A stretch of DNA of 64,000 nt from Mustelus asterias (lineage: Eukaryota), in NCBI RefSeq assembly GCF_964213995.1, contig NC_135814.1, forward strand, positions 32,116,001-32,180,000, read 5' to 3'. Position 1 is the stretch's first letter; each line of letters begins with the position of its first letter. The notes under the pieces are model-generated. The model saw only the letters and a list, made by a program, of their open reading frames with translations. It was not told where the DNA came from and did no database searches. A program made the translations under genes and the position numbers. Positions 104 to 45,239 of this stretch are shown here, piece by piece.

Positions 104-1149
104 GGACAGTAAGAAGTCTCACAACACCAGATTAAAGTCCAACAGGTTTATTTGGTAGCACAAGCTTTCGGAGTGTCGCTCCTTCTCACCTGAACATAGA
201 ACATAGAAAGCCACAGCACAAACAGGCCCTTCGGCCCACAAGTTGCGCTGATCACATCCCCACCTCTAGGCCTATCTATAGCCCTCAATCCCATTAAATC
301 CCATGTACTCATCCAGAAGTCTCTTAAAAGACCCCAACGAGTTTGCCTCCACCACCACCGACGTCAGCCGATTCCACTCACCCACCACCCTCTGAGTGAA
401 AAACCTACCCCTGACATCCCCCCTGTACCTACCCCCCAGCACCTTAAACCTGTGTCCTCTCGTAGCAACCATTTCAGCCCTTGGAAATAGCCTCTGAGAG
501 TCCACCCTATCCAGACCCCTCAACATCTTGTAAACCTCTATCAGGTCACCTCTCATCCTTCGTCTCTCCAGGGAGAAGAGACCAAGCTCCCTCAACCTAT
601 CCTCATAAGGCATGCCCCCCAATCCAGGCAACATCCTTGTAAATCTCCTCTGCACCCTTTCAATGGCTTCAACATCTTTCCTGTAATGAGGTGACCAGAA
701 CTGCGCGCAGTACTCCAAGTGGGGTCTAACCAGGGTCCTATAAAGCTGCAGCATTATCTCCCGACTCCTAAACTCAATCCCTCGATTAATGAAGGCTAGT
801 ACGCCATACGCCTTCTTGACCGCATCCTCCACCTGCGAGGCCGATTTAAGAGTCCTATGGACCCGGACCCCAAGGTCCCTCTGATCCTCTACACTGCTAA
901 GAATGGTACCCTTCATTTTATACTGCTGCTCCATCCCATTGGATCTGCCAAAATGGATCACCACACACTTATCCGGGTTGAAGTCCATCTGCCACTTCTC
1001 CGCCCAGTCCTGCATTCTATCTATGTCTATGAAGAAGGAGCGACACTCCAAACGCTTGTGCTACCAAATATACCTGTTGGACTTTAACCTGGTGTTGTGA
1101 GACTTCTTACTGTGCTTATCCCAGTCCAACGCTGGCATCTCCACGTCAT
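104..1149. mobile_element. Penelope-like fold-back element (inverted terminal repeats) interrupted by a CR1 LINE
   Basis: Arms at about 110-190 and 1030-1111 are reverse complements; 12-bp target-site duplication TGCTACCAGGAA at 92-103 and 1150-1161. Confidence 0.75.
195..1029 (-). mobile_element. 5'-truncated CR1-type LINE (RT C-terminus and 3' tail)
   Basis: Uninterrupted ORF 272..1051 (WAEKWQMDFNPDKC, LVRPHLEYCAQFWSP, LERRRMRGDLIEVYK); (ttctatg)n tail; TGAA duplicated at 191-194 and 1030-1033. Confidence 0.93.
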
Positions 1150-1880
1150 TGCTACCAGGAAACCATGAATTATACACTGCCTGTGGTCACAAGCAAGATG
1201 GAGGGGGGTGAGGAAAATGCCAGGCTGTTGATGCAGAGCATGCAAGGCTATATGAGTGCAGACATTAATCCTTTGAAGTTGGGGGGCTGCAATGCACATA
1301 TAACCTATTATTCTCTTCACCAATTTTGCTTAGTCCATGGAAAAGCAGATGTAGATTTCCAGACCTAGAATAGTGCACGTCATACACTTCCCCGATGCAA
1401 CAGCGAAGAGCCAACTGCAATTTGTCATTATCACCTGCTGCAGCTTGGGTCATGTCGGTCATGTAAATGTGAAATATCTTAACAGCCGCGAGGACAGAAG
1501 TGCTGAGCTTGCATTGATTGGGGCTCCAGTCAGGAAGGCTGGATTAGGCTGATAGATTAAGATAATGAGCTAATCAAGGCCATTGACCAGAGGCTGACTG
1601 GAGCTTTCCAGCAGAACCGCAGGCCACCTGTGACATTGGAACCACAGCAGTTTCAGAAGGTGGCCCCTGGCGGCCGACCGGGTGGGCTAGAACTCTACAC
1701 AGGGTGGTAGTGGGGCTCCTTCCACCTATCTGGACACTGCTTCGGCTGTGGGCTGCCCTGTGGATTGGTGATCCAGCAGCTGTGGCCAATTTTACCTCAA
1801 AATTCTTAAGTGCCGAGGGAATGTCTCAAGATAGACTCCCTTACCTGCAGGCTGCAGCTCCTTTTGTGCTAGTATCTCTT

Positions 1881-2219
1881 AATCATAGAAATCCTACAGT
1901 GCAGAAAGAGGCCATTTGACCCATCGAGTTTGCACCGACCACAATCCCACCCAGGCCCTACTCCCATATCCCTACATATTTACCCACTAATCCCTCTAAC
2001 TTACGCATCTCAGGACACTAAGGGGCAATTTTAGCATAGCCAATCAACCTAACCCGCGCATCTTTGGACTGGGAGGAAACCGGAGCACCCGGAGGAAACC
2101 CACACAGACACCAGGAGAATGTGCAAACTCCACACAGACAGTGACCCAGGCCGGGAATCGAACCCAGGTCCCTGGAGCTGTGAAGCAGCAGTGCTAACCA
2201 CTGTGCTACCGTGCCGCCC
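1881..2219 (-). mobile_element. tRNA-derived SINE (HE1/V-SINE-like)
   Basis: Head GGCGGCACGGTAGCACAGTGGTTAGCACTGCTGC...GGTTCGATTCCC (A/B boxes), V-domain-like core, LINE-like tail; multiple copies in the window. Confidence 0.88.
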
Positions 2220-3266
2220 ATGTGTTGGCTCTCTATTTTCAAGGACTCCAATCTCCTGAATTGGACAGTGAGCACGCTGAAAAGCTACTAATTTGCCAAT
2301 CCGGGCAATTTTTGGGTGACTGACACAGTGCAGCATCAACCCTGGCATCTGGGTCCTGAGCGCAAACACACACATTTATAGTGGTGTAAATATTTTGTGT
2401 GGTTAGGGCGGTAGTTATAGTTCAATGTTGAGGTTAACAAGCTATTCAATGGCTTCAGCTTGCGTGGTCTGAATGGTTGTGACACAAGTGGATCTCTCTG
2501 GGCAGAAGCTCAGTGTGTGGGCAACGGTATGACGTAGGTAGCCTCATTCACAATTTGAGCTCTCCTTTATGTTCCACATCTTCCCTAGCCTGTCCTCAAG
2601 CACTTGAGGGTTGTCCAAATTTTGAAACCTAGGACTTCACCACTTGAATCAGTGATGGTGTTATGGTTGGTGACGTATGCAGTCAGCCAGGAGGTGTGCC
2701 ATCAAGAGGTGGTAAGGTATAAATCATGTCACAAACTGAGACAGTTCTATAATATAATTAAGGCTTGTCTTGTCAAGGAAAATGGCAAGTGTGACACCTT
2801 CTGTTTCCAAGCTATTTGAAGTGTTTTCTTCTCTGTCGAAGGTGAAGATTTCACAGAGTCAGTATTTGCAGATTATACTGACGTCAGTGCTGTGATTTTA
2901 AATTTTGTCTTCCCAAACACTTCAACCTGAAAACATCCTTGATTTAATCACCTCATTGCAAAAATTGAGCTGCTTGAAAACATGATTATTGGCAAGCTAA
3001 GGGGGCGATTCTCTCAACAAAAAAAAATTCTAAGTCTTATTCTGAACTTTATAATCTAATTCATGTTAACAGCTGAGCAAGGTTTAGGGCTGAAGAATTG
3101 TATGGTGATATTATCCCTTTTCTCTTTTAATTCCGTACATAGCTAAAGGTGGTAAAACAATCTTGAGTCACAGATTTACTGAGCTTGATATGAACATGGA
3201 AGTTTTTCATTGCCTCACTATGTATAACAAAACCTTTACAAAGTTAGAAAGTAGTTGTTTGAGTAT

Positions 3267-3522
3267 TGCTGAAACCAGAGACATGTCGAAGCTTTTCATC
3301 TTGCACTCATCAGGACACTTACCAGTATGAGCGAAAAATAACAATTTATACTGTATGTGAAAAGCGTGCTGGTTGGTTAGCAAGTGGCATTGTCAACACT
3401 GCCCTGTCCACTTGCCAACCAATCAGTACTCTTATACAGTATGAATTGTTATTTTCCCCTTATACAGGTAAGTGTCCTCATGAGTTCAAGACAAAAGGCT
3501 TCAACATGTCACTTTTTCAGCA
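3267..3522. mobile_element. Second fold-back element family carrying a hammerhead core (PLE-like)
   Basis: TGCTGAAA...TTTCAGCA ends; the whole segment is an imperfect inverted repeat; a related fragment lies at about 4445-4511. Confidence 0.65.
3283..3318 (-). ncRNA. Minimal type-I hammerhead ribozyme motif
   Basis: Minus strand reads gtgtc-CTGATGA-gtgcaagat-GAA-AAGCTT-C-gacat: stem I gtgtc/gacat, conserved core, palindromic stem III. Confidence 0.55.
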
Positions 3523-3754
3523 TGCTAAAGATTAGAAAGATTTACATTTGCAGTAATTGTTGAATTTAATAAGCACCTGTTATAGTCCATATACTTTAGC
3601 AAATGCCATCTGAATTATTGCAGTTTTAATGGAAGACTGCAAGTGCTCCCAGTTTAATGGGCCTTTAAACTTTATAGATTTCTAGCTTCCGAGGTAAATT
3701 GATTTAACATATTTGACGTTATTTTTGAAGCAATGAATTATGCTTTCCTTTTAG

Positions 3755-4274
3755 TTTGAGAAGGAGAAACAACATGACATCCGCTCATTCTTCTCACCAA
3801 AACCTGACACTGCAGAGAAACGCAAGAGAATCCCTCAGGGTTTGCCAGCCAACCAGGTTTCTGATATAATTGAGCTGCAGAAATCTCCAGATTCCCCCAA
3901 ATTAGTTCAGCAACCACTACAAAAACTGGATAAAATAAATGCAGTAGAAGATGATGAAAACGAGAATGATGAAGAGTGCAAAATATCCAATGACGAGCTG
4001 CTGCTACAAGCTGACTTTGAACCACAGACTAAACGATTTAAATCTTTATGTTCACCAGTCCAAAATTGTACAAGTGCAAGAAAGAGAAAGGCCAAAGATG
4101 GGATGACACCATCCCCATTTAGAATTCAAAGCACCCAACGATTTCTGGGTGAAGCACAACTTACCTCAAGAAAACTGCCTGTAACTGAAAAATCGTGGAA
4201 CTGCAAGTTGTGCACATACACCAACAATACCTTACTGTCTTACTGTGAAATATGTGAAACTCTCAGAGATGTTG
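3755..4274 (+). CDS. ZRANB3: ZRANB3 exon: PIP box and RanBP2-type (NZF) zinc finger
   Basis: ctttccttttag|TTT GAG AAG...; encodes FEKEKQHDIRSFFSPK...WNCKLCTYTNNTLLSYCEICETLRDV; donor G|gtaaga (phase 1); in frame with ORF 3842..4357. Confidence 0.93.
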
Positions 4275-4516
4275 GTAAGATCATTTTTTTATTTTCCATC
4301 ACTTGTAAATGTATTATAAAAATATTTACTAGAAAAAGCCTCAAGTTGACATATTAGTATTTTACTTCAACTAAAAATAGCTGAGTATTTTGGTAAAATC
4401 AGGGGAAACATTTGGTACTTTGGGGGGTGAGGAGGAAATTACTTTGTCACTTGCTAATCAACCAGCACTCTCTTCACACACAGTATAAATTGTTACTTGT
4501 CCCTTATACTGGTTGG

Positions 4517-4646
4517 TGCCCCCTGGCATTGGCACTTTGCCCCTTGGGCAATGCCAAGGGTCCATGCTGGCAATGCCCAGGGGGCACCCCCTTCCCGGGC
4601 GCCCAACCCTCCCTGGGGGTCATCGATTGCCTCCCTTCACTCGAGC
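4517..4646 (-). repeat. Fragment of the GC-rich MITE-like element found at 59970-60855
   Basis: Reverse complement of about 60280-60415 (gccccttgggca..., caatgcccag, cccaaccctc, gattgcctcc.cttcactc). Confidence 0.75.
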
Positions 4647-4657
4647 TGTCCGTGTAG

Positions 4658-4951
4658 TATTTCAAACTGAAGCTTTTCCTGACACAGATGACCAGAAAGG
4701 AGAAAACATGCCTTGTCAAGCAAATCCAAGTGAAAAAGAGTGTGAAGGGGCAACCCAGCCTCAGACTGACTGTACTGTGCTACCTGACCTGGAGAATGAG
4801 GAAAAAGATGAATCAAACGCACCTACAGAACAGGTACACAACAGCACAGTGAAATCTGAGGAAAACCTTGTATTGATTGATATTGACAAAAGCAGCAATG
4901 CACTTTCCATAACTGAAGAAAGAATGCACAACGCGAATCAACAGCAGCCAG
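4658..4951 (+). CDS. ZRANB3: ZRANB3 exon: acidic low-conservation linker (acceptor 4658 or 4688)
   Basis: Open frame (ORF 4513..5016) with an E/D/S-rich peptide; donor CCAG|gtaatt is phase 1 and matches the flanking exons; two phase-compatible AG acceptors. Confidence 0.65.
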
Positions 4952-5379
4952 GTAATTCTGTTTGTTCTTCACATCGGTTACTACAACTAATTGTTTTCAC
5001 TTATTGTAAGCACTGAACCCAGTTTAGTTCGTTTCTTGAGCGCAAGTTTTGCAATGTTGTTTACTGATTATCCCAGAGGTGGTGGAGCAAATCTCCAAAG
5101 TGTGTCTAACTCTTTAAACTTATGCTAATCATCTTTCATTAGTTGCTCATCATGGCTCAGTACTTTACCCACAACATCTCAAAGCGGTATATGATCATCT
5201 TGATGCATTTTGATTATATTGATCTATTTAATCTGATAACCTTCTGTTCAATTCCTAACCAGATGTTTATCCATCATTTTTTTTTTAAAGAATATGTAAG
5301 CCATTTAGATCTGAGGCTGCCATTCCATGATATCACAGATGATCTGTACCCTAACTCCATTTACCTACCTTTGTTCATG

Positions 5380-6210
5380 TCTCTTGATGCCCATTACTAA
5401 GTAGAATCAATCTTAGTCTTTAAAATTGCTATTGGCCCAATATCCAAGGCCTTTTCTAAGTGACAGTTCTAGATTTCTGCTACCCAATGTGTGGTTCTTG
5501 ATTTTGCTCCAAAATAACCTAGATTTAAAGCCTTTGCTTTATTTTTATAAGGGGGCTAGATTTTTGCCCCCTTGTTCTGGATATTCCCCCACTAGAGGGT
5601 ATAAATTCTCTCTTTCTACAATTGCAAATACTTTCTTTTTTTAAACACCTCAATTGGATCACCTATCAACCTGCCAAAGAAATTCAAACCAATGCATTTG
5701 CAAAATCAAGCCTTTAAACCCTTGTTCCATTCTAATAAATGTGCATGTCTTTTGCAAGGTGCCCCAGGTGCAATATTCCAGATGGGGTCTGACTGAGGGA
5801 TCTTCACAACTGAAGCATCTATACTTCAATTTTGAATTCCAAACCCTTTGATCAAAATTCCATTAGCTTTTTTGATTACTTTTTGTACCTGTAAACTGAT
5901 ATTTGGTGATTTGGATGCCTAATGACCTCCTTAGAAAATTTAACTCGAATAATTAGATGTGACCTATCATCCACAAATCCCTTTGATAAGTTCATGCATA
6001 TCCAAGTGCTTAGTCACTGTCTGGTAATGGATTCCAATAACTTTTCCAGAAGTGATATTAAACTGATGGGTCTGTGGTTTCTCACTTCCTGCCTTCTTAT
6101 GTAACAGACTGACATTTACAATTTTCCAAATGAAAGGCATGATTCTGGCCCCGAAGGACTTTGAAACATCATGACTAATATCATCACTTACAATATCCTC
6201 ACCCACCCAT
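5380..6210 (-). mobile_element. Highly degraded CR1-type LINE remnants
   Basis: Minus-strand remnants of the NYRPVSLTSVVGK and LEYC-type segments (ORF 5967..6206). Confidence 0.5.
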
Positions 6211-7101
6211 CAAGTCTTTAGATTGTCTATCTTCAGCCACGGTATATCCTAAATCCACTAACTTGACTTATTTCTAGATTTCCTTACACGATTAGTGTTT
6301 TGTTGTCTTCCCCCACTATGATATTTATTTAACGAGTTTCTCATTTTGCTTATTGTTCATTATAGTCTTGACCACATTGATTTTTTTAATTGTCCCAGAT
6401 TCCTTTTTACCAATTCAGTGTATGCACTGACTGCATTTTGAAGCCCAAAACATCTCACTATTCACCATATCACAGATGCATCAAATAATTTACACAGATA
6501 TGCTTTTAAAGTCTCTGGCAATTTTCATCCTATAATCCAACTAGTCTATTCCAACCAGCAAGCACCCCGTCAGTTCCCTTTATAAATTGTTTCTTTGATT
6601 AACCCCTTTGCTGTTATGTGCAATATATTTTGTTTCAATGGTGGCCTATGGCAAAGTATTTTAATGACTTTTTGCATGCAGAATTTTGTTTCTAATCATT
6701 TTGTGATTATCTGAGGTATATACCCTCTTTATTATCAGTTTCACCAATCCTTCATATTCTTCAAGACTTCCCTAAAACCCTCTGCTGTAGTGTAAGAAAC
6801 ATAATTTCTCAAAGTTGTGGCATTTCATAGAATCTTCCTATAAATTCCAACACTGTTTCCACTCCCCCTACCCAATTCTTGCCTTGAGTGCGTTGACTTC
6901 TTGCTGGGTGCCTTGATCAAATGAATGATGAAAGACTTAACGACTATCGCAAACCTGTCTTCACACCATAAGGTTACTTGCAGCAGTTTCTGATATTTTT
7001 TTAAAAATCTGCTTTGCTGGCATCCCATATTTGAATGTGTGAAGGAGAATTTATTTTTGTGAAATTAATCATGGTGTTTCTTTCAAACATTTCTGTTATA
7101 G

Positions 7102-7199
7102 AACAACCTGATATCACTTGTGACAGCAGTGTTCCAATTTATGATGGCTTCATGTTTTGCGCAAGCAAGAATACCGATAGAATATATCTCTACACCAAG
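7102..7199 (+). CDS. ZRANB3: ZRANB3 exon: start of substrate-recognition (HARP-like) region
   Basis: ttctgttatag|AA CAA CCT...; EQPDITCDSSVPIYDGFMFCASKNTDRIYLYTK; donor AAG|gtatta. Confidence 0.92.
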
Positions 7200-8616
7200 G
7201 TATTATTCGTAATTTCATCTCCATATGTTGGTGCATACTATTCTGGTACAGATGTGTATTCATGGGTCTTGCATTACACTTACAAGTTAGTGAAACAGCA
7301 TTCAAAGATCCCCAGCAAACTATGTTTCAGAAACAAATATTCTTTTTAACCAGTAAATTAGAAAAATTCTGTTTCTGATCACAAATCTTGTAAGTTCAAA
7401 CACACATGATTTCTTTGCCTGCTTGCGAAAAAACAATCTTCATTTTATGATGCCTTCCACGCTGTTATGATTCTGATTATTTTAGGTTTTTTCACAGCCA
7501 ATTAATTATTATTTGAAGTGTATGCATGGTTATTTTAAAAGCAAGCCTGGTGCAGTAAAAATAAATGATGAGGGAGCTGTTGTGAGTGATGCTGGTTGCG
7601 AGGTAAATGTTAGCTGGAACACAGTCCTTGAATAATCCACAAGATCTTTTACATTCACCTAGCTAAACAGAGCCTTGGTTTAACATCTCATCAGAAGACA
7701 GCACCCCCACCAACACAGCATTTTCTCAGTGCTACACTGAAAAGTCAGCCTGGATTGTGCACACAAGTCCTAGAGCTGATTTTAACCATCGACACCTGTC
7801 AAAAGTGGAGTTGTCATTTGGCTTGAAAGCTGCGTCAGTAAATTACAGCCCTATTTAAGAGGCCATTTGCAACATGGAAGTCGGAGTACTACAACATACA
7901 TTGGGCTAATGTCAGTGTGACACTTTGCTCATTTGTAGGGGCAGTGAGCAACCTAACCAGCAGTCTTTGGAAACCGCTAAGAAAATGGTTCAGATAACTT
8001 CTTAATTAACATTTGCTTCTTCTGATTGGCTCTCTCTTCTCTCAGGCTCCAACTGCTATTCGCCATTCATAGTTTGGTACATCCAACACATCTGCTGCAG
8101 CCAAACAAATACTTTGCCCCAAAATGGCTTGTTGAGTGGATGGGTTGCATGGTAGGCAGTGGGTGCACATCGAGGGACTAAACTTTAAAATCAGCCTCCT
8201 AGTTGGTACTTGGAACCAACAACCTTCTGATTCAGACTTACGACTAATAAATTTCAGTGAAATTCAGTTTTATTTGATTTTTGCTCTCTCTGCTTCAAGA
8301 TCGGTATGGGAAACAATAAATTAAGCTATTGCTGGAGTACCTTTGCCTTGATTTTTCCTAAATCTAACAGCATTAAAAAAATAAATGAAGGAAAGTGGCT
8401 TGATTTTAATGGGTTGGAGGGGTGGGGGGGGTGGCGTTAGAAGTGCCAAGATACCTTCTACTTGTTTACAGCGAGTCTGGTGGCTACACACCTCAGAAAA
8501 TATGCAATGCCATAAAGTGTGTAACTTAGTCCATAATTTCCTTTTTATTTTGTTCGAGGTTCCCCATGACAAAGATGCATCATTGCAATGGTGGAAATTC
8601 CCAGGGAAATCTGATT

Positions 8617-8925
8617 CATAGAATCCTGCTGTGCAGAAGGAGGCCATTTGGCCCATCAAAACTGAACCAACCACAATCCCACCCAGGCTCTATCCCCATA
8701 ACCCCATGCATTTACCCTAGCTAATCCCCCTGACACTAAGGAGAAATTTAGCATGGCCAATCTACCTAACCCATACATCTTTGGACTGCGGGAGGAAACC
8801 AGAGCGCTCAGAGGAAACTCCCGCAGACACGGGGAGAATGTGCAAACTCCACACAGACAGTGACCCAAGCCTGGAACCGAACCAGTGGTTAGCGGGACAG
8901 CAGTGCTAACCACTGCCACCGTACC
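8617..8925 (-). mobile_element. HE1/V-SINE-like SINE
   Basis: Same family as 1881-2219, with a small deletion in the head. Confidence 0.85.
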
Positions 8926-9479
8926 ATCACTGAACATAAAGTTGCTTCCCCAAACATCTTAGTTTTTGCATTGTGGCATTGCTTATCCTCATCATAAACA
9001 CTTTTGACAAATATATTAAACTTTTTGTAAAATCAGTTCTACATGTAACAGCTTAACATATTAACAATTCATATTAATAATTGAATACAATGGCACATTA
9101 TTACCCCACCCCACCCCCACTGGAGGTGCATGCTGCCCCTGTATTAAACTGTCCGTTTACTCTACTTCTGTTGGTTCGGTCAGTTTTTATTTGTTTGTGG
9201 AAAAATAGAATTGTCTAGTAGTTCAAATCAAACAATCTAAATGAAATAGTGCAGGTTTATTTTTAAATTTCTCCTTGGATCATTAAGCGTGGAAGCAAAC
9301 CAGAGCAGTTCCACTGAGTTGGACAATGGGCCAAGTGAACATAAGGGATGTGACAAAGACAGCTGAACAGATTTTGAACTATCTTTGTGCCAAAGAATTC
9401 CACGAGTTACTGCATTTGTTTTCAGAGACAGTAGAGGGCCAGGTCATTCCCAGTACTTCGCCAGACAGTCCTGCATAGC

Positions 9480-11240
9480 ATTCTTCCTTTTCGTTTGTTC
9501 TTGGAACGCAAGTGTGGCTGGAAAGGCCAATGATAATTACTAATCCGGAATTGCCTTTGAGAAAGTGGTGGGGAACTGCCTTTTTGAACCGCTGCAGTCC
9601 ATGGGGTATAGGTACAGCCACATTACAGTTAGGCAAGGCGTCCCAGGATTTTGGCCCAAGAACAGGGATATCATTTCAAACCAGGATACTGTGTGACTTG
9701 GAGGGGGGACTTGTAGATGGTGGTGTTCCCAAGCATATGCTGTCCCTGTTCTTCTTGATGATAGAGGCTATGGATTTGGAAGGTTTGATTTATTCATACA
9801 TGGGACATGGGTGTCACTGGCTGGGCCAACATTTACTGCCTATCCTTATTTGCCTTTGAAATGAGTGACTTGCTGGGCCACTTCAGAGGGCAGTTGAGAG
9901 TCAACCACATTGCTGTGACTCTGGAGTCACATGTCGGCCAAGCCAGGTAAGGACGGTAGATTTCCTTCCCTAAAGAACGTTAGTGAATCAGATGCATTTT
10001 TCCAACAATCGACAATGGTTTTGTGGTCATCAGTAGATTCTCAATTCCAGATTTTTTTTTAAAATTCAAATTCAACCATCTGAGGTGGTGGGATTCAAAC
10101 ATGGGTCCCCAGAATATTAGCTGAGTTTCTGGATTAATCGTCTAGCGATAATACCACTAGACCATCCCCTCCCCATATGGGTGGTGTCAAAGGAGGCATG
10201 GTGAGTTGCTACGGTGTATATGGTGTATAGTACACACTGCTACCACTGCACTGATGCTGGAGAGACTGAAATAATGTTTAAGGGAGTGAATGGGGTGCTG
10301 ATCAAACAGACTGCTTTGCCTAGGATTGTGTTGAGCTTCTTGAGCATTGATGAAGTTGTATGCATCTAGGCAAGTGGAGGGTGTCTCAGCATATTCCTGA
10401 CTTGAGCCTTGTAGATGGTGAACAGGCTGAATCAGGAAGTGAGTCACTTACTGCAGAATTCCCAGCCCCTGGCCTGCTCTTGAAGCCACAGTATTTATAT
10501 AACTTTATCCATTTATGTTTCTGTTCCATAAAGGCAACGCTATTGAATGTCATGGGAAGATAATTCGGTTCCCTCTGGCTGGAGATGGTTATTGTCTGGC
10601 ACTTGTGGCACAAATGTTACTTGCCAGTCCTGAGGTTTGTTCAGACCTTGCTGCATATGGATGCAGACTGCTTCAGTATCTGCAAAGTATCGTATTGTAT
10701 TAAACACTGTGCAATCATAGCAAATCTCCTCACTTCTGATATGTTGGAGGGACGGTCATTGATGAAGCAGCTGAAGATGGTTGGGCCGAGGACACTATCC
10801 TGAAGAGCCCCTGCAGAACTGTCCTTGGGCTGAGATGATTAATCTCCCAACAACCACAACAAACTTCCATTGTGCTGGGAATGAGTCCGACCAGTGGGGA
10901 GTGTTTCCCTGTTTCCCATTGATTCCAGTTTTGCTAGTACTTCTTGATGCCACACCAGATTAAATGCTGCTTTGATGTCAAGGGCAGTGACCCTCACTTT
11001 GCCTCTTGAGTTCAAATCTTCTGTCGAACTCTGGCTGAACTGCTATCTACAGCTGAGTGACCCTGGCGGAACAATAGTGAACTGGTTGTTGCAGTGCAAA
11101 TGTTGCTTGATAGGCTATAGATCTAACATCCCAACTATGTTGTATGTATATATAGTATGTTCTCCAGGTTAGCACCCCATTTTTGGGTATGCCTGATGCT
11201 GTTCTGGCATGCTGTCCTACACTCTTTGAAAATGTGCCGA
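9480..11240 (-). mobile_element. Degraded non-LTR retrotransposon pieces (same family as 30790-32130)
   Basis: Shares segments such as tcattgatgaagcagctgaagatggttgggcc and tttgatgtcaagggcagtgac with 30790-32130, in reverse orientation. Confidence 0.6.
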
Positions 11241-11518
11241 GGATTATTTTGCTTTTCAAAATGATCCTGAGGAGTTGATTAGATTAAATTTTAGTTTGAG
11301 GTATTAAGATTGTAGATCACATTTCATTCAATTGGCTTTGTGCTCAGACAGTCTTATCAGTGCGCCTGTTTTAATGTCCTTGTTTGCTTCTACCACATAC
11401 AAAATGGCGAGTGTTATTTACCCTGGTGTTGGATCCCCTGGAATTATCTTGATCGTTTGTACAATGTGCAGCACTGAGGAGTTCAAGTAAATGATTACCG
11501 CTATTTGTTTATTATTAG

Positions 11519-11620
11519 GAGGGAGAGCCTTTAAACTGCAATTTTATTCCTCTGGATGTAAAGTCAGAGAACTGGGAGGATTTACCAACATTCTTTGATC
11601 AGAAAAAAAACCGTGCAGTG
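11519..11620 (+). CDS. ZRANB3: ZRANB3 exon (not in ORF track)
   Basis: ttattattag|GAG GGA GAG CCT...; EGEPLNCNFIPLDVKSENWEDLPTFFDQKKNRAV; donor GTG|gtaagg; 102 nt, phase 0-0. Confidence 0.92.
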
Positions 11621-11838
11621 GTAAGGTTTGAATTGTATTTATGTTTTTAAGTGGAATGATTTTATAGATTTTTTTTTAAAGATGTATGCTTTTGTATGAC
11701 AAATATTGTCAGAATCCTTTAACCCGTAATAGTCATTTTGGCAACAATCTGAGCACCACAACTTGTATTATGTAAAATCAGGTTTGACAAAGTACATCTC
11801 CTTTTAACTGACCCAAATTACTGTGCAACATCTAAGGT

Positions 11839-12186
11839 ATCATAGAAATCATAGAAACCCTACAGTACAGAAAGAGGCCATTCGGCCCATCGAGTCTGCA
11901 CCGACCACAATCCCACCCAGGCCCTACCACCATATCCCTACATATTTACCCACTAATCCCTCTAACCTACACATCTCAAGACACTAAGGACAATTTTTAG
12001 CATGGCCAATCAACCTAACCCGCACATCTTTGGACTGTGGGAGGAAACCGGAGCACCCGGAGGAATCCCACGCAGACATGAGGAGAATGTGCAAACTCCA
12101 CACAGACAGTGACCCAAGCCGGGAATTGAACCCAGGTCCTTGGAGCTGTGAAGCAGCAGTGCTAACCACTGTGCTACCGTGCCACC
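11839..12186 (-). mobile_element. HE1/V-SINE-like SINE
   Basis: Near-identical to 1881-2219; (atagaaatc)n tail. Confidence 0.88.
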
Positions 12187-13391
12187 CTGATGAAATATGT
12201 GGCAGACATATGGAAACAACACCACCTACAAGTTTGCCCTCCAAGCCACAAGCCATCCTGATTTGCAAATGTATCATTGTTCCTTCATTGTCACTTACTC
12301 AAAGTTCTGGAACCACCTACTTTAACAGCACTGTTGCTATACCTGCAATACATGCACTGCAGTGGTAAGGAGGCAGCTCATCACCTCGTCAAGGGTGATC
12401 AATGCTCATCTTGCCAGCAACACCCATATCCCATGAATGAATTTTTAAAAAGCAAAATACTGAGTTACAATAAGTTCACTGAAGAGCAGTAAATGTTCAT
12501 ACAATTGCAACTGAATAATGTGGGTTTTTATGCAGCACCTTTCAAAGCATCAGTATGGTCCACAGGGCTTTACGGGCAATGAGGTTCTTTTTGAAGTGTG
12601 GACTTGAGCAATAAGTTTTCATAAAGCAATGTTTCATAAACAGCAATAACATAATGACCAGATAATCTGTTGTAGCCATTAGTTGTGGAATAAATACTGG
12701 CCAAAACATCAAGAAAACTCCCTCGTTCATCTTCGCATAGTGCTATGGGATCTCTTTATGTCGATGTGAGTGGGCCTCCGTTTAATATCTCTTTCATAAG
12801 ACTTTTTATGTTGTGCTCTCAGCCTGGAACATGTACTCAAGACTCTGGGCTGAGACTTGAACCCACAATGCTCTGACTCAGTGGCATGAATGCTTCCACG
12901 AAGCTTAGGCTCATCATTATTGCTCATCAGTTGAAACATTTAAAAATAATTGAAGGCATTTTCAATTGAAAAAGGTGCTACTAGATGCACATTGAATCAG
13001 TGGTTAATTTTTATGCACTTTGTGCACGTATGCAGGACAGTATTTATGTACCTGCGCATACACAGTGGTGCTAGAATGGTAACTAGTGTCCACATTTAGC
13101 CTATCCAATGTATGTTTTTCCTTTGAAAATTAATAAGTTTATGTTGTATATTCAAGGCCACCTTGTGACACAAGGCATTGGTGGTACTGTTGATCTTATC
13201 ATTGCTCATTTAGTTAAGGAGAGTGTAGTGTTAACTTACACACAGAAAATCTTAACGTTGTCTTAAAGCACCTGGTCTAGAAATAGCAGGAAATTAAATA
13301 ACTGAGTCCGCCACAATATCAGTTTATTTTACCTTTGCTTCTGTATAAATTTGCATTTTAACCCCCTGGTTTATTTTAAACAAACTTGCAG

Positions 13392-13534
13392 CTTCTGCGA
13401 TTTGTACGAGAATGGCTCAGCTTAACTGCTATGAAACAAAGAATAATTAGGAAGAGTGGCCTGGTTTTCTGTAGTCCTTTACTTGCACTAGAAAACATCA
13501 TGAAAGGCCAGCGTTTACAAAGCTGTACAAAAAG
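13392..13534 (+). CDS. ZRANB3: ZRANB3 exon (not in ORF track)
   Basis: cttgcag|CTT CTG CGA...; LLRFVREWLSLTAMKQRIIRKSGLVFCSPLLALENIMKGQRLQSCTKR; donor AG|gtgaga (phase 2). Confidence 0.93.
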
Positions 13535-13608
13535 GTGAGACTTTATTGGGATGTTCCTAATATTTGACCCTCAGTTAATTGAGACTTTCCATTTTCATGT
13601 TATTATCA

Positions 13609-14490
13609 CGGATGACACTAAAGTCGGTGGAGTTGTGGACAGTGCGGAAGGTTGTTGCAGGTTACAGAAGGACATAGATAAGCTGCAGAGCTGGGCTGAG
13701 AGGTGGCAAATGGAGTTTAATGTGGAAAAGTGTGAGGTGATTCACTTTGGAAGGAGTAACAGGATTACAGAGTACTGGGCTAATGGTAAGATGGATGAGC
13801 AGAGAGATCTCTGTGTCCATGTGCATAGATCCCTGAAAGTTGGCACCCAGGTTGATAGGGTTGTTAAGAAGGCGTACGTTGTGTTAGCTTTTATTGGTAG
13901 AGGGATTGAGTTTCGGAGCCATGAGGTCATGTTGCAGCTGTACAAAACTCTGGTGCGGCCGCACTTGGAGTATTGCGTGCAGTTCTGGTCGCTGCATTAT
14001 AGGAAGGATGTGGAAGCATTGGAAAGGGTGCAGAGGAGATTTACCAGGATGTTGCCTGGTATGGTGGGAAAATCGTATGAGGAAAGGCTGAGGGGCTTGA
14101 GGTTGTTTTTGTTGGAGAGAAGAAGGTTAAGAGGTGACTTGATAGAGGCATACAAGATGATCAGAGGATTAGATAGGGTGGATAGTGAGAGCCTTTTTCC
14201 TCGGATAGTGACGGCTAGCACGAGGGGACATAGCTTTAAATTGAGGGGTGATAGATATAAGACGGGTGTCAGAAATAGGATCTTTACTCAGAGAGTAGTA
14301 AGGGCGTGGAATGCCCTGCCTGCTGCAATAGTGGACACGCCAACATTAAAGGCATGTAAATGGTCATTGGATAAACATATGGATGATATTGGAATAGTGT
14401 AGGTTAGATGGGCTTTATATTGGTTTCACAGGTCGGCGCAACATTGAGGGCTGAAGGGCCTGTACTGCGCTGTTATGTTCTATGTTCTAT
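13609..14490 (+). mobile_element. 5'-truncated CR1-type LINE
   Basis: ORF 13551..14402 (DDTKVGG, WQMEFNVEKC, RPHLEYCVQFW); (gttctat)n tail; TATCA duplicated at both ends; same family as 61611-62070. Confidence 0.92.
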
Positions 14491-14829
14491 CATACCTTTT
14501 TGTTTACTTTTACCGTGTTCTCTATGTAGCGCATCCTGTTCAAATGTTGACCCTTTTTCGGTGATGGAGAGGAGGAGGAGACTATCACTGAGTTTTTAGT
14601 GAGAGTCTGTTTATTGAAGTTGTTTATTTTTTATATTCCTAAGTTCCTATTTGTTCCAATTGTTTAAATGAAATTTAAATACAAAAGCTGAAAACTGGTG
14701 TGCATCGTGCATACAGATTATTTGGTTTGTTTTATTTATTCCTGCTTTAGTAATTGTGTTTCTTTGTTACTTTCCAATAATGAAAATGGAGTGCTCATTT
14801 GAAAATCGGTATGAAATATTTATTTTTAG

Positions 14830-14979
14830 ATTTATAACAAAAGAAGATGTAGCTGCTGTGTCTCTGAAGAAGGCACGCAGTGAAGGAGGAACTGTCCGAG
14901 TTATAACAAGTGAGACCACGTTCCATGGCAAAAATAAAACCAAAACTTCCGATCAACCAATTAAGAACAATTTAAACAC
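14830..14979 (+). CDS. ZRANB3: ZRANB3 exon
   Basis: tatttttag|A TTT ATA ACA AAA GAA GAT...; FITKEDVAAVSLKKARSEGGTVRVIT...; donor AC|gtacgt, phase 2, matching the next acceptor. Confidence 0.85.
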
Positions 14980-15074
14980 GTACGTTTCTTTTGTTTCCTG
15001 TTTAAATGATCTGCCAATCAGAGATCGAAATGCTGTGTTTGGTACAGTTCTTGCATAGCATTTCACCATTGAAG

Positions 15075-15590
15075 AAATAGAACAGAGAACAATACAGCAC
15101 AGGAACAGGCCCTTCAGCACACCAAGCCTGTGCCGATACAGTTTCTATCCGTCTGTGCGCCTCCTGCTCATCTGTCTATCAAGGTACACCTTGAACGTTG
15201 CTAACGTACCTGCTTCCACCACCTTCACTGGCAGTGCATCCCACCACCCTCTGTGAAAAACTTCCCCTCACGTCTCTGCTAAATTTACCACCTCTTAAAC
15301 CTGTGCTCTCTTGTAGTCGAACCTTCCACCCAGGGAAAAAGCTTTTGACTATCCACTCTATTCATGCCTCTCATAATTTTGTAGACCTCTATCAGGCTGC
15401 CCTTCAGCCTCCGTCTTTCCAGTGAAAACAGTCCCAGTTTATCCAACCTCTCCTCATACCTAAAACCCTCCAGACCAGGCAACATCTTGGTAAACTTTCT
15501 TTGCACCCTCTCCAAATCATCTATGTCCTTCTGTTAGTGTGGCGACCAGAACTGCACACGATATTCCAAACTAGCCTAACTAATATAATC
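15075..15590 (-). mobile_element. CR1-type LINE 3' fragment
   Basis: ORF 15285..15515 (ERVQRKFTKMLPG...LERRRLKG). Confidence 0.85.
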
Positions 15591-16379
15591 AAACAACTTG
15601 CCAGAAAGCCACTTTCCTGATTCCGATTCGTCACTGAAATAACTGGTGGCATCTTTAATGCTATGAAGGTAATGGTAAAATTTTCTATGATATATATGCA
15701 TTAAATAACAGCGATATATAAAGCTTCTGTTCACTTACCATCTGGCTTTTCTTACTGTAGAAATCTGAAAAGTAGATTCACTCTTGTGTCTATTGAGCAA
15801 TAACATGTGTCGGTGGTTTTTGTTACAAGTTTCTTTAATCTTTGCAATAATTATTTATTTAGCATTAATGATCCATAACTATTTTTCCCTTTTTATTTGA
15901 GCCCCGAAAATGTGTGTTACTGCCACAAAGAACCTCCTGCCAGATTTCTGAAAATATTCAATTTTAAACATTGCTGCAATCCACCAAGTGTGATTATTAA
16001 ATTTGAGATGTAAATGTGCCAAATTGCTTCATACAGCGTTTAGATTGGATCCATTAACCTGATCGTATGTAAAGAAAAATTGTTACAACATTTGAAACTT
16101 TGTGTTCACTTTAAATTCTGCAACTCATGTTAACAGTTAAGTATAACTGGAGTATTGGCCTCCATATGTAGCCATTGGATGCTAAGTAACTCAAAATAGT
16201 CATTTGTTTTATAGATGTTAGTGCATGTTTTGATGTGAATTAAATTTGAGCTCAGAAGATTAATACTTGTTAGAACAGCCAAATTTAGAGAGCTAACGCA
16301 TTTTAAAAATGTAAAATATTTTCTACTTATCATTAAGCAATTAAAAATGAATGCGTATCATATATTGTCTTGCTTTCAG

Positions 16380-16785
16380 TGACACAAGTGAAATTATTGA
16401 GAATAAAGTCTGCAACACGACCTCTCCATTGCCTCTAACTGATGAATTGGCTGACATCTCCTTGGAAGTTGGTTATGTACAAGCTGTGAACAAAGATGGA
16501 AACCCACTTTGCCTTGGTTGTCAACAGCCCACGATCCAGGTCAGCAAGCATCATGAGTCCACAGCTTGGGACACCCGATATTGCTCCCAGAAATGTCAGG
16601 AAGACTTTTTGGTCCGGTCCAATCGGTGCTATATGAGATCAAAGGTTTTTGAAGCTGAGCATGGAATCTGCCAGCAGTGTGGCCTCAATGCTCAGGAGCT
16701 GTACCTTCATGTCCGAGACACACTGAGAGCCCAGCGGAAGGAGCTACTTGAAAGCACATGGCTGGCACAACTTCCACTCGGTCAG
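16380..16785 (+). CDS. ZRANB3: ZRANB3 exon: N-terminal part of the HNH endonuclease region
   Basis: tgctttcag|T GAC...; GYVQAVNKDGNPLCLGCQ...WDTRYCSQKCQEDF...VFEAEHGICQQC...LPLGQ; donor CAG|gtaagt. Confidence 0.93.
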
Positions 16786-20352: not shown

Positions 20353-20484
20353 TTGAATGAAATTATTTCAAATCCAACGGAGGGTCAATTCTGGCAAGTG
20401 GACCACATCAGACCAGTATATGGTGGTGGAGGACAGTGCTCCTTCGAGAACCTACAGACACTCTGTACTGTCTGTCATAAAAAG
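20353..20484 (+). CDS. ZRANB3: ZRANB3 exon: HNH catalytic motif (not in ORF track)
   Basis: ggtttcag|TTG AAT...; LNEIISNPTEGQFWQVDHIRPVYGGGGQCSFENLQTLCTVCHKK; donor AAG|gttagt; 132 nt. Confidence 0.95.
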
Positions 20485-24188: not shown

Positions 24189-24439
24189 AATGCACCTGTC
24201 CAACCCTCCCTTCCCAATGCCAATCCTGTGGACTGACATTCCTTAGTTGAGTCGATGCTTTAAGTGGAGTGAATGTCTTGATGAGCTGAGATTTCTCAGT
24301 AGCTGCAAAAGTTATTGATCTGCAGTAGAATAAACTCTCAGGTGAACTTTAAGTTGAGCAGGATATAAGAAAATTATTTTTTCACTATTGCTGTTGAGTA
24401 CCTTTTGTTACTTAGTTGACTGCATGTTTTAGATGGTGT

Positions 24440-28170: not shown

Positions 28171-28492
28171 TCACAAGTTGTCATTGATTTATTTAAATCT
28201 GCACTTGCAGTGGTAGAATTTGAATTCCAATGCATTGAATGCTCAATATCAAAATCACTAGACTACCTTACCCTTGAAATTAAAGCAAAAGAATGCTCGG
28301 GGAATGTTTAACGACAACTTGCATTTGTCTTTCAACTTTACCATAAATAAAATCTGCTATTGCATTTCATTATTGGAAGGAATTGAGAATAGGAAGACTA
28401 GAAGAGATGGTACAGAATCTATTGGAGAAAGGTAGTAAGGAGTACTGAAGTGGTGCATAATTGCATTTTATTGACATTCCATTAATCTACCT

Positions 28493-29458
28493 TGTTACAA
28501 TTATGAAGTTTAGAATATCATTTTGGAACTGTCTTTTGTTTAAGGTAAAATGATAGGGGGGAGGGGGGAGACTTATTCTAAAGTCTGCTTGTCAGCAAGC
28601 TTGGGGTGGTTAAAAGATCAGAGGTCTAGATTTTGTTCCAGGGGTAATGGCACAAGGTGTTCATGTTGAAAGCAGTGGCAGCAGTCTAAGTTCAGAATTG
28701 GTAGATTTGAGTCCCAGTCTCAGAATGATGTTGAAAGTATCGGATTGTGAAAAGTTGCCCTGTGAACTGTATTTACTTCGAAGATGAGGGAGAGTTGTGG
28801 TCACGGATAGCTAATCAGCATATCTACCTAGATGCAAAATGTTTTCTGTTACTGTGGGGAAGAGGACAGAGGAAGCCATTTTGAGATCAGATTACAGGCT
28901 TCCCTACAAATTGACGAATCTCTCAGGCAGACAATAGTTTTGTGTGGTCAGCAGAGGAATGAGGCTGTTTGGATTTACAAACCAGCAGAGTTCAATGCAG
29001 CGATGATCTCTAGTCAAAAAAATGCATTTCACAGCCTTCTAAGTTGAAGAATTCTGGGAGATTTGTTCCAGCAATGCAAGAGTGGACAAATCATCAGGAC
29101 AGATTTGACAGCTGATTGTGTATTTAGGGAACTCTCCAAAAACCAAGGGAAGTGCCTGGAGACGGCCTTTCAAAATTACAACTCAGCAAAACAGGGAAAT
29201 GTAAACACATTGGAAGCTGGGAGCAACTGTCGATTGTTTGTGGTAACATCTTAATTCTGTGGAGCATGTGATGTGTTACCAGTATAAAAGGAGTTTTAAG
29301 TATTAGTTGCCTCCAAAAAGTAAGTCAGTAGTGCTTTTTTTTTAGTTATTTGTTATAGTAAAAGTTTTAAAACATGAAATCTTTGTCATATTTTCAGCTA
29401 TTAACTGGAAGTTTGAATTTCCTTTCAAAAGTTCTTGGTCTCTAAAGGGATTGCAACA
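28493..29458 (+). mobile_element. Possible solo LTR
   Basis: TGTTACAAT...ATTGCAACA termini (TG...CA, 8/9 inverted match); no clean target-site duplication. Confidence 0.3.
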
Positions 29459-30316
29459 CCATTGTTACCTCCGCCACTGAAGATGAGCAAAAGTAATGCT
29501 TTCACTCTGATTTGTTTTGGTTGTCAGTAAACAATATATGTCGAAAACTAATAGATGGGCTTCCACGAAATCTGGAACATAGATGGGGTGTGGCCCAAGG
29601 AAGAACTGATTAGTTTTTGGTGAAGATCCAGATTCTGGAGGTTTTTAACATTAGGGCGTACAAACTTTATTTTTAGAATGTTGATGTCGTTTTATTTAGA
29701 ATGCGTTGTTTTAAAATGTTGTGGCGGAACTTGTCACAGTTGTCAAAATGTGAGCAGAGTCTTCAAAGCAAGTTGTTGGATGTGGATTGACCTGAAGCTT
29801 CCAAAGTGAGATGAAAGCTCTTAAAAGGATTTTTTTCAGCTTTGCAGTTGCAGAGCATCAAGCAGATAGGAAAAAGGCTCGCGGAAGAACTAGGTAATTG
29901 CAATGTTGAGTTAATGCAGCCTGGCAGTAATATGCACTGAGTACTATCTTGTAAATAAATTGTCTGATGTAAAACAAAATTTAGTGAATTATGTATATTT
30001 TTATAGATCTATATGAATGCATATTTATATCTACTTGTGTAAAATCTCCAAATATGTAACATACAAATAGCTTGGACCATTTTCATGTATTTTAGTTCCA
30101 GATATTGCTTCCTTAATGCTTTAATATTGAATTGTATTCAGTATTGTTTTACAAAGCTGTCGTGTTTTGGAAACCAATAGAGGATTCACAGGAAGTACTA
30201 CCAACTTTTACTTGAAATGCCTCTGATGATGCAAGCAATAATTTGTGATAAAACTTAAGGTATTATTGTCCAAATAACTCAAAGGATAACAATGAATTAT
30301 GAAACTTCTTCTATAG

Positions 30317-30415
30317 AGAACTGCAAAACAAGCTAAAGAAAGAAGCCAAGCAAAGAGACTTTCGGAGACTTCCAAATACGCATCAGACATCAGAAGTTTT
30401 TTTGCAAAGAAATGA
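30317..30415 (+). CDS. ZRANB3: ZRANB3 last coding exon with C-terminal PCNA-binding motif and stop
   Basis: cttcttctatag|AGA ACT GCA...; RTAKQAKERSQAKRLSETSKYASDIRSFFAKK*; TGA at 30413-30415. Confidence 0.93.
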   Translation, partial: RTAKQAKERSQAKRLSETSKYASDIRSFFAKK

Positions 30416-42105: not shown

Positions 42106-43942
42106 CTAATAAAAATAAATAAATCTGTGAATGACAAGTTTTCTGGCACACCTAACATTTCAGTTCAATTTTAGACAAATCTGAACGCTAGATTGGGCAA
42201 GACTATTGGAAACATCACAGATTAAGCTTTTATTATGCAGGACAGATAGGTTATAATGGAGCACGTTAAATATCATCAGTTAGTGCATTAATAATCCATA
42301 CTTCTAAGCAAAAAAAACACAAACATTCGAAACAAATATTTTACACAATACATGTTACTAAACAAACTTAAGATTGTGATATTCTAATAATATGATATCC
42401 CAAATCTCTGTGTCAATGCTTCTGTTTTAATTCCACTGCTAAATGAAAACAAAAATAACACTGGATGACTCAAGAGTTACTTGCTGACGTAATTAGGAAC
42501 CCTGGCTTGAGGTGAATTTTATCAAACTTGTTTCTAATTTATGGAAAATAAAATACCAGCAATGGACTACTTGAAAGCAAAGCAGGGACGTAAATTAGAA
42601 ATGAGTTTGGTGAAATTCTCCAGTGCAAAACTAAATTAGGAAAGGGCCCCAACTTTCTGGGGCAGAGAACAAAAATGTATGAATGGGGAAACCTGGGCAG
42701 GATTGGAATAACCGAATTCCGCAGATATTCCAACGATGTGCAGGAAAGAAATAACCCAGTTGGGGTCCCACAGCATCATCTTTTTAGTGTGGGGATGTGT
42801 CAATGTTTGTGCCCGAAGTTCACACATTTGTGCTTTGCAGAAGAAGCACTATGCGGGTATCAGAACCAAAAACTTGTAACAGTTTTCTTTCTCAGCCCAG
42901 CACTAGCGAGAAGGTAAGGAGTTCCCCCAGTGATGGTAAATGGCAGGAATTGGAGACGTAAATTCCAAATGTGTCCTTCCAAATTTATTAACGGGACCTG
43001 GTAGAGGGAAATGGCCCAGACCACTGACTGCAGTTGTTCAGGTAAGCCGGAACTGTCCAAATGGCCTTCCTGAACTCCACTATTCCACTTCAATGCAATG
43101 AGAAACAACGGGTTTTTTGATTAGACATGTTAGTTCCTGCCCATTGGTGTTTTACAACTTCTGAGATGTAACCATGAATTCCTCATAGGAATGTTTGGCA
43201 AATCAGATTGGCTAAACAAGATCAAAGCAAATGTGGTTTGGTGTTTGGGTTGCCTCTCTATGCAGCCAAAGGGCTGCTCAATACACCCAGGGTTTACTCA
43301 TCTTTGCCTGTCACATTCCTGGACAATTTCAATGTCTAATAACATCCAGTTCTAATGAAAGGTAGCACCTTGAAACATTTACTCTACTGTTTCTCCATCC
43401 ACAAATGATGCTCATCCTGTTGAGTATCTGGCATTGACTCATTTTGTTTTTAATCAGTTACATTGGATTAAGTACATTTTTCCCACAAATTATTTGACAA
43501 GAATATTAATGGATTTGTTTACTTAGACTGGGTTGGAGTTTCAGATGAGAACATTTTGTATCTATGTTTGAAGAACAGTTTTAATTCCTCAGAGTTCCTC
43601 ATCTGTCCTTGAATATTTCTCTGACAGGTTAGCCTATTCACTACAGGCTTTGGGTGGGAACAGGCCACTGGACTAGGATGCTCCAAAACATGTCCAAGTA
43701 TTGTTAAGGCTCTATCCAATTCAGAGAATTTCCGATTTCTGACCCCAGATCAGCAAATTCTATATTGTGGGTGTTTCCAAACACCAAAATGTTTCTTCTT
43801 GCCCCTGATGGGTTGGCCCACTGTTCGATATCCAACTTCCAAAGTGGGAGAAATGCAATTTCTGGTCTTGCTCAGGCAAAGTGACATGGTGCAAGTCTGG
43901 GTTCTAGGATCCTCCCCGAATCAAGAGACTCTGCTCACAGAG

Positions 43943-44451
43943 GCATAATGTGGAGATGCCGGCGTTGGACTGGGGTAAACACCGTAAGAGGTTTAACAAC
44001 ACCAAGTTTAAGTCCAACAGGTTTATTTGGTAGCAAAAGCCACACATGCTTTCGGAGCCTTAAGCCCCTTCTTCAGGTGAGTGGGAATTCAGTTCACAAA
44101 CAGGGCATATAAAGACACAAACTCAATTTACAGAATGGTTGGAATGCGAATACTTACAGCTAATCAAGTCTTTAAGGTGCAAACAATGTGAGTGGAGAGA
44201 GCATCAAGACAGGCTAAAGAGATGTGTATTGTCTCCAGACAGGACAGATTGTTTGTACCTTAAAGACTTGATTAGCTGTAAGTATTTGCATTCCAACCAT
44301 TATTCTGTAAATTGAGTTTGTGTCTTTATATGCCCGGTTTGTGAACAGAATTCCCACTCACCTGAAGAAGGGGCTTAAGGCTCCGAAAGGTTGTGGCTTT
44401 TGCTACCAAATAAACCCGTTGGACTTTAACCTGGTGTTGTTAAACTTCTTA
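43943..44451. mobile_element. Penelope-like fold-back element with about 200-bp arms and hammerhead cores on both strands
   Basis: Arms at about 43984-44187 and 44248-44452 are reverse complements; CACAGAG duplicated at 43936-43942 and 44452-44458. Confidence 0.8.
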
Positions 44452-45239
44452 CACAGAGACGTACCCAGGTGTCACGTTACTATTATTGGTAAGATGCTGC
44501 TCACAGTATTTCCTTCATTTTTATGAACTTCACAGTGAGAAGTGCAAATTTAAGTAAACAATTGAAACCTTGAATGGAAAACGCTTTTAAATTATGCATA
44601 TTTTGAATAAGAATATTGTATTTCACATGCAAATTGAGATAACGTTTCCATTGAAAATTTCTTAAACCAATGAAAATTCATTAAATGGCACCTTGATGTA
44701 TTTATTGAGAGATAAAAAGCTTTTGCTCAAGGGCAGCTCAGTTGGAGAATATTGGAGGTGTGCCTGAAGATTTTTTAGTGTAAAAGATGTGCTGTGACAG
44801 ATAAAACATTGGGAACCACTGATTTAGGGGACACAGTTTAAAAATAAGGCGTCATTTAAAACAGATGAGAAAAAACATTTTCAGTGGGTCGATGGTCACG
44901 GAATTTTCTTCCCCCAAGTTCATCATGAATCTGATGGTGTACAGCATAGAGAGGGAAGTAGAGTTGAGGCCACAATCAGATCAGCCATGATCTTATCAAA
45001 TGGCAGAGCAAGCTCAAAGGACCAAATAGCCTACTCCTGCTCCTAACTGGTGTATAATTTAAAGCGCCAATTTTCTGTGTAATGCAACATTACTTTTAAT
45101 AATTCTGCCTTAATGTTCAGCATAAAACAAACATTATTGCACCACAAAATACTTAACAGCAGTCTCAGGACAAAGCAGTTTTATTTTCATGTTGAAATCT
45201 ATCTTCAGTTTTTAAAAGGTTAAAATGCTTTCTGTTGTT

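Follow-up and report, generated by a model that had tools for sequence, protein, structure and literature searches.

Insertions and host genes at the locus

The window analysed here is a stretch of 64,000 nucleotides from the shark Mustelus asterias (NCBI RefSeq assembly GCF_964213995.1, contig NC_135814.1, positions 32,116,001 to 32,180,000 of the forward strand). It holds the 3' parts of two genes and four related insertions (copies 1-4, Table 1). The latter are very probably defunct insertions, truncated at the 5' end, that derive from the non-coding terminus of an abundant Penelope-like element (PLE), likely made when one RNA was copied twice, with a separate start at either end of a staggered cut. 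The plus-strand host exons come from a Pfam scan of 98 plus-strand frames from positions 1-34,369, among 348 unmasked frames. We take this zf-RanBP/HNH gene to be ZRANB3 from its domain order and from synteny, and its putative last exon was located via peptide motifs. Copies 1-3 lie within introns of this gene, copies 2 and 3 both in the intron 20485-30316, and copy 4 is intronic in RAB3GAP1, between exons 41994-42107 and 47996-48139. The placement in introns of ZRANB3 and RAB3GAP1 given by an earlier reading of the same DNA from its letters alone (the sequence-only reading) is supported.

Table 1. Coordinates of the insertions, their parts and the neighbouring features (window numbering; TSD, target-site duplication; LINE, long interspersed nuclear element; RT, reverse transcriptase; pLTR, pseudo-long terminal repeat).
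Feature	Position	Strand	Description
Copy 1	104..1149		untailed left arm 104-186 (-), tailed right arm 186-194 + 1030-1149 (+)
Copy 1 TSD	92-103/1150-1161		12 bp, exact
LINE 3' fragment within copy 1	about 195-1029	-	open RT-like frame; TGAA on both sides; 835 bp
Copy 2	21926..22130		fold-back; untailed left arm 21926-22014 (-), tailed right arm 22015-22130 (+)
Copy 2 TSD	21913-21925/22131-22143		13 bp, 1 mismatch
Copy 2 left-arm hammerhead	21979..22010	-	core 22007-22001 intact; breaks in the 3' strand of stem I and in one pair of stem II
Copy 3	27695..27777	+	solo untailed arm, truncated at the core; G8 to A
Copy 3 TSD	27683-27694/27778-27789		12 bp, 1 mismatch
Copy 4	43948..44451		PLE 3' untranslated end in fold-back form; left arm 43948 to ~44247 (-) with tail, right arm ~44248-44451 (+) without
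Copy 4 TSD	43936-43947/44452-44463		12 bp, 2 mismatches
Copy 4 left-arm hammerhead	44047..44079	-	U16.1 to A
Copy 4 right-arm pLTR motifs	44325..44358	+	TATA-like box 44325, initiator-like CCACTCA 44354; mirror copy 44113/44084 on (-)
Copy 4 right-arm hammerhead	44359..44395	+	undamaged in core and stems; AGGU in place of the AGCU palindrome
ZRANB3-like gene, 3' part	3755..30415	+	zf-RanBP exon from 3755, HNH exon ending 20484, last coding exon 30317-30415
RAB3GAP1, 3' coding exons	34768-35058, 41994-42107, 47996-48139, 48226-48336, 49856-50092, 51140-51283	-	Rab3-GAP catalytic exons
Second fold-back	3244..3525		older, unrelated; hammerhead-like core 3313-3307 (-), degenerate mirror arm near 3477

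The recognition of the family in the sequence-only reading was correct, and its interpretation is partly supported. All four insertions that it listed are present and related to each other (pairwise blastn E 1e-8 to 1e-33). Copies 1, 2 and 4 are head-to-head inverted repeats, as had been described, with arms facing outward from an inner junction and a tail of about 36 nt on a single arm each, which agrees with the one-sided extension of 35-40 nt claimed. Each insertion also has its TSD, but among the lengths of 7-12 bp given before, those of 7-10 bp were exact cores; all four TSDs are 12-13 bp once one or two mismatches are allowed, and the mode of the family is 12. The start of copy 4 is set by its TSD, read with two mismatches. 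The consensus stem I of CAC/GTG does not apply to copy 3, a member of a subfamily with stem I CAT/ATG. Copy 1 reaches a length of 1 kb only because its right arm is split, within the hammerhead core, by a LINE 3' fragment, presumably of CR1/L2 type. This fragment was inserted later than copy 1, and relatives of it occur elsewhere in the window.

An AATAAA motif is found in each arm. Those at 22051 and 27738, in the last ZRANB3 intron, and at 44022 (-), in RAB3GAP1, match the sense of the host gene and are candidate premature poly(A) signals.

A coding parent element of high abundance

First-look searches of the 3.68-Gb genome gave 2,409 candidates for copy 2 and 2,605 for copy 4, and 40 were scored for each. 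Sequence of the copy 4 type follows the stop codon of an open reading frame (ORF) at other genomic loci, and frames upstream of such ends match Pfam RVT_1 (E 1.5e-10) and GIY-YIG (E 7e-4, from a fragment and just missing the Pfam cut-off; no GIY-YIG was reported for the full-length protein, and the precomputed domains of homologs support it). An RT search of the genome returned 26,804 candidates, and 13 of the 150 scored matches lie in open frames of 912-913 aa. Within these frames lies an ORF of 893 aa with RT and GIY-YIG, whose start ATG is located directly behind the tail; the repeat end recurs directly behind its stop codon. A PLE origin had been proposed from the letters, with linkage to such ORFs as the check, and it is borne out by this direct linkage. 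As in endonuclease-bearing (EN+) PLEs, a single ORF with RT and C-terminal GIY-YIG is joined to the repeat, and direct and inverted pLTRs, a tail at one end and a TSD are present. Of the 20 element stretches retrieved, which were selected by a long frame or an inverted pair, most match a single copy at 97-100% identity, and 16 have the head-to-head arrangement.

The 893-aa protein possesses a DKG motif and a CCHH zinc-finger motif with two cysteines inside GIY-YIG, both read by eye from the translation, and a CX4CX2C linker between RT and nuclease that fits the CX2-5CxxC criterion of Neptune. Such a linker is common to Neptune and Nematis (PMC8557442), and vertebrate PLEs are described as solely Neptune and Poseidon (bioRxiv 10.64898/2026.07.22.740005). 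Taken together, the DKG, CCHH and linker motifs point to Neptune or Nematis. The closest named proteins are from sharks (81-94% identity), followed by turtles (42-45%). In an expression check the element was covered by contigs from 4 of 20 runs, contigs that carry no end, strand or level information.

A total of 43 family loci were found in 60 arbitrary 10-kb stretches (600 kb), and 46 in 620 kb when the two neighbours of the window are included, occupying 3.7% of the bases. About 260,000 family loci are obtained genome-wide by extrapolation, and at this density four copies in 64 kb are the genome average. Short copies grade continuously into full-length elements, which leaves a separate family of short non-autonomous insertions, one of the earlier suggestions, unsupported, and every window copy comes from a different subfamily, each having long ORF-linked members too. 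The inverted short copies are by-products of PLE insertion.

Several further arrangements were seen among the family loci. Partial tandems at L020:1501-2005, L024:1501-1790 and L014 consist of a short leader copy, then the ORF start, then another leader copy, which suggests template jumps at the RNA 5' end. In the youngest lineage (L107-L113, L123, L125) about 62 nt are duplicated at the ORF stop, and the two arms of long inverted pairs agree in having or lacking this duplication. At L154, L163, L164 and L044 a PLE is inserted into or right beside an older PLE, a possible preference for its own end. Fragments of more distant PLE families, with 30-38% identity to the 893-aa protein, were found at L141, L122, L264 and L046.

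The hammerhead motif in the family and in the window

A total of 245 arms were found, of which 210 have a parsable hammerhead region and 35 do not. The motif was called intact when it shows the core CUGANGA and GAAA, NUH with H other than G, an extra base before stem II and palindromic 15.1-16.1; 166 of the 210 are intact, as are 25 of 44 in the unselected arm set. N7 is variable, and H17 is U in 151, C in 36, A in 23 and G in none of the 210 arms. At the family level the core, H17, extra base and palindrome are those of a minimal type-I hammerhead. The covariation alignment, derived from the genome, holds 92 of 94 distinct variants, two with longer loops being excluded. Paired cells make up 95.9% of its stems, a value not reached in any of 500 shuffles, and slid partners give 26-58%. 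The stem I.1 pair changes from C-G to U-A in 17 of the 92 variants and stem II.3 from A-U to G-C in seven, and some G-U cells are probably the result of CpG decay. Since stems I and II covary across subfamilies, the minimal hammerhead that had been recognized from the letters is real for the family.

None of the seven window arms is intact, each carrying at least one core or stem mutation, and the doubt already expressed about the activity of these copies is upheld. The left arm of copy 1 and the right arm of copy 2 lack the start of the core, with C3-U4 missing from the latter. The right arm of copy 1, split by the LINE fragment, has two further core changes, and the lesions of the other arms are listed in Table 1. 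An Rfam scan of the window gave no hammerhead-family match at E<=5, and a match to MIR7533 reflects the hairpin alone. Folded in the sense of the host gene, copy 2 is predicted as a single hairpin of -126 kcal/mol and copy 4 as one of -346 kcal/mol. The two arms are antisense to each other, therefore no sense-sense dimer is possible within a copy. When two sense hammerheads were cofolded, stem II paired between the molecules and no AGCU helix formed, in a thermodynamic model that does not score the core. The window copies are predicted to be without ribozyme function, and the weight formerly placed on ribozymes on both intron strands is not justified, all arms being broken, mutually antisense and predicted to fold into one long hairpin.

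Assignment of the copies to a microRNA or a miniature inverted-repeat transposable element was tried and rejected, for the arms face outward from an inner 5'-5' junction and are linked to an ORF.

A separate hammerhead-like motif occurs at 12187-12216 (+), at the edge of a repeat resembling a short interspersed nuclear element (SINE). It comprises CTGATGA, a perfect 6-bp hairpin and GAAA, with no UH or stem I seen, and is probably due to chance.

One tail in inverted insertions

Exactly one tail is present in 60 of 62 inverted pairs and two tails in none, while the two untailed pairs represent a tandem mis-pairing and an interrupted arm. Among 27 pairs not picked for the tail (17 picked by RT and 10 arbitrary), 26 have one tail (p=4e-7 against a free 50:50 choice). 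The TSD mode is 12 bp across 54 pairs. In 16 long inverted cases the longer arm is the tailed one in five and the untailed one in ten, with one pair of equal arms; as either arm may be longer, neither simply copies the other. For the comparison of junction overlaps, in which most rows are artefacts of palindromic references, the small-overlap rows alone were used.

A PLE protein has been shown to nick both DNA strands and extend them, and to begin reverse transcription at two neighbouring RNA positions, which delimit the tail (PMC11167929). In the shark family a 12-nt staggered cut would supply two primers, with one start site for each DNA end. One primer would start at the tail end and the other 36 nt further in, and both copies would run toward the 5' end of the same RNA and be joined where they stop, that is, by twin priming. 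The reading of the copies as 5'-inverted PLE insertions, offered before, is supported.

5' ends and the predicted cleavage site

The 5' ends are not evenly spread. In the unselected set, 16 of 56 arms (11 of 49 if those of the window are omitted) have their end between -11 and +9 relative to C3, compared with four in the next 104 nt. Among 50 arms ending 1-12 nt before C3, a sample that includes loci picked with a near-core query start, 12 end at -6, and a G precedes 10 of these 12, some of the preceding G being templated by the partner arm. Base -6 is part of an initiator-like motif with a TATA-like box about 30 nt upstream of it. Synthesis of the shortest copies, including copies 1-3, thus likely continued to the very 5' end of the RNA, close to a start site 6 nt ahead of the core. 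In the pLTR of copy 4, transcription would likely start at 44356, the predicted counterpart of this 5'-end peak.

Copy 4 also retains the TATA-like box and initiator on both arms (44084-44113, -; 44325-44354, +), forming a possible weak outward-facing promoter pair.

A second group of ends falls at the predicted cleavage site. In a young insertion with a template jump into the ORF start, 4 kb past the right end of the window (L076:3990-4293), the first base of both arms is the one that follows H17. When an arm had to be preceded by three non-matching bases, 1,148 arms of the young subfamily were found to begin precisely at the predicted cut, 125 at -3 and 423 at +7, and 45,859 are intact across the site; after correction for the filter, cut-site starts amount to about 5% of young-subfamily arms. 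The first 30 cut-site matches are all true junctions, 29 of them inverted. The partner arm extends upstream of the cut in 0 of 29 cut-site pairs versus 4 of 10 inverted controls (p=0.003). In a second subfamily, whose sequence differs at the cut, 235 arms start there versus 95 at the control, under a stricter filter.

On balance we lean slightly towards a joint explanation of these junctions, in which each inverted insertion would result from twin priming of one RNA, each DNA end using one fixed start site, and the thousands of copies that begin at the cut would reflect germ-line cleavage by the minimal PLE ribozyme, with loss of the 37 nt at the capped end. The template of a few percent of copies would then likely have been RNA already cut by the hammerhead.

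Two questions stand open in print, namely whether minimal PLE hammerheads cut in vivo, for which PMC4209133 gives no evidence, and how inverted one-tailed insertions are formed. No report of a cut-site signal, of PLE twin priming or of shark PLE hammerheads was found in the accessible literature, subscription papers such as the 2005-2006 PLE reviews lying outside the search. Both questions become readable from junction statistics in a young family such as this one, whose near-identical ends number tens of thousands and which also supplies intact elements for a direct in vitro test. The four window copies are ordinary debris, and the interest lies in the family-wide statistics.

Comparison with known elements

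Twin priming is said to have been described for L1 by Ostertag and Kazazian, with both target strands priming cDNA on one RNA and the cDNAs joined inside. L1 reportedly inverts a non-overlapping upstream segment, whereas the shark PLE arms copy the same terminal segment and so yield a palindrome.

Among EN+ PLEs, an inverted 5'-truncated copy with a one-sided tail of 30-40 bp and a TSD is known from Pen2/Pen2a of Adineta (PMC3846280; PMC8557442). The fold-back with a one-sided tail is already published PLE anatomy, and the local finding is ordinary. The shark family shares with Pen2/Pen2a the head-to-head arms, one-end tail, TSD and partial tandems, as well as a pLTR with TATA-like and initiator-like motifs and palindromes at the inner junction. 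It differs in a far higher copy number and a tight 12-bp TSD mode, and the tail, called "optional" or "often at one end" in these papers, is single in nearly all shark pairs.

Opposite-strand pairs of minimal hammerheads 100-700 bp apart were already reported from metazoan PLEs (Cervera and de la Pena 2014, PMC4209133), with no shark example in the searched text parts and supplements, one supplement file excepted. The shark motif is likewise type I, with an unpaired base between 9 and 10.1, G10.1-C11.1, palindromic 15.2-16.2, no helix III and mostly dispersed single motifs, but its stem I has only 3-4 bp and its stem II 5-6 bp. Poseidon PAc of Anolis carolinensis (Frangieh et al. 2024, PMC11167929) also has a single RT and GIY-YIG ORF, a hammerhead near the ORF start and a tail bounded by two fixed ends. 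The ORF of PAc starts inside the hammerhead and its tail is located 111+ nt into the ORF, whereas the shark tail ends at the start codon and the linker of the shark protein points to Neptune. PAc showed no sign of in vivo cleavage. Animal non-LTR retrozymes (bioRxiv 10.64898/2026.07.22.740005) are similarly short, non-coding and PLE-derived with a type-I hammerhead. They are tandem direct repeats with one hammerhead polarity, and the window copies, being inverted or solo without tandem direct units, are not retrozymes by this tandem criterion.

Alternative explanations

Both arms might instead come from self-priming, as proposed in PMC3846280 and PMC8557442, with one cDNA or antisense template folding back at a short palindrome and copying itself, and a nuclease resolving the hairpin so that the tail is left at one end. 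Symmetric junctions at natural palindromes were indeed seen (L109, L126, L067, L203), and shared variants and the one-tail rule would follow without two primers. Yet either arm may hold kilobases missing from the other, which a fixed first strand cannot template, and both target strands were extended in vitro (PMC11167929); we judge self-priming improbable. Far less credible is an independent non-autonomous family of retrozyme or SINE-like units that would have master genes of its own and be mobilised in trans. It would fit the clustering of short copies at one 5' boundary near C3, and animal retrozymes have been argued to derive from PLE ends (bioRxiv 10.64898/2026.07.22.740005). The ORF-linked long members of each window subfamily speak against it, as do junctions that vary from copy to copy and the lack in the window of a shared palindromic unit or tandem monomer array.

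The pile-up at the cut could also mark a second transcription start or an RT stop, an interpretation that we regard as rather doubtful. Counted by eye, about 8 of 30 cut-site arms are preceded by an untemplated G, so a capped start at the cut is possible; in vitro activity was low (PMC4209133); and in anole no RNA reads end at the cut (PMC11167929). A better candidate start, however, lies about 37 nt upstream, at the TATA-like box and initiator where the G-preceded ends at -6 fall, a stop imposed by RNA structure should fall at the foot of stem I or II and not at the cut base, and the excess recurs in the subfamily with another sequence at the cut. That the intronic copies have been co-opted as ribozymes regulating ZRANB3 or RAB3GAP1 RNA is extremely unlikely. 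Copies are intronic in both genes and the right arm of copy 4 retains core and stems, but that least damaged arm is antisense to RAB3GAP1, all seven arms are damaged, the predicted hairpins bury the motifs and the number of copies is the genome average.

Besides the untemplated G and the anole reads, several points weigh against twin priming with cleavage. The anole hammerhead proved dispensable for insertion in vitro (PMC11167929). The covariation amounts to two or three subfamily events, with core columns fixed by the intactness filter. In the second subfamily one of 17 partners passes the cut, and about 40 of the first 100 matches (by eye) join at a 2-nt AT overlap, which microhomology could favour and which may inflate the count. 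The cut-site peak was assessed at three offsets only, leaving its sharpness unproven, and the +7 control, which pools more subfamilies, is only 2.7-fold lower. Short indels occasionally distinguish one arm of an insertion from the other (L141, copy 4), and many junctions lie at short palindromes, as self-priming also predicts (PMC3846280). The signal for cleavage is an indirect one, read from genomic junctions.

Other features of the window

The second fold-back (Table 1) belongs to a family with 2,477 first-look candidates and about 80% identity between copies. Its motif has a 4-5-bp stem I, CUGAUGA, a 2-bp stem II, GAAA and palindromic AAGCUU, and a tail of about 25 nt may be present. None of the loci retrieved showed a linked ORF; the family is probably another PLE end. 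A C-rich minisatellite of about 12 units of 15 bp lies at 21626-21810, 115 bp before copy 2.

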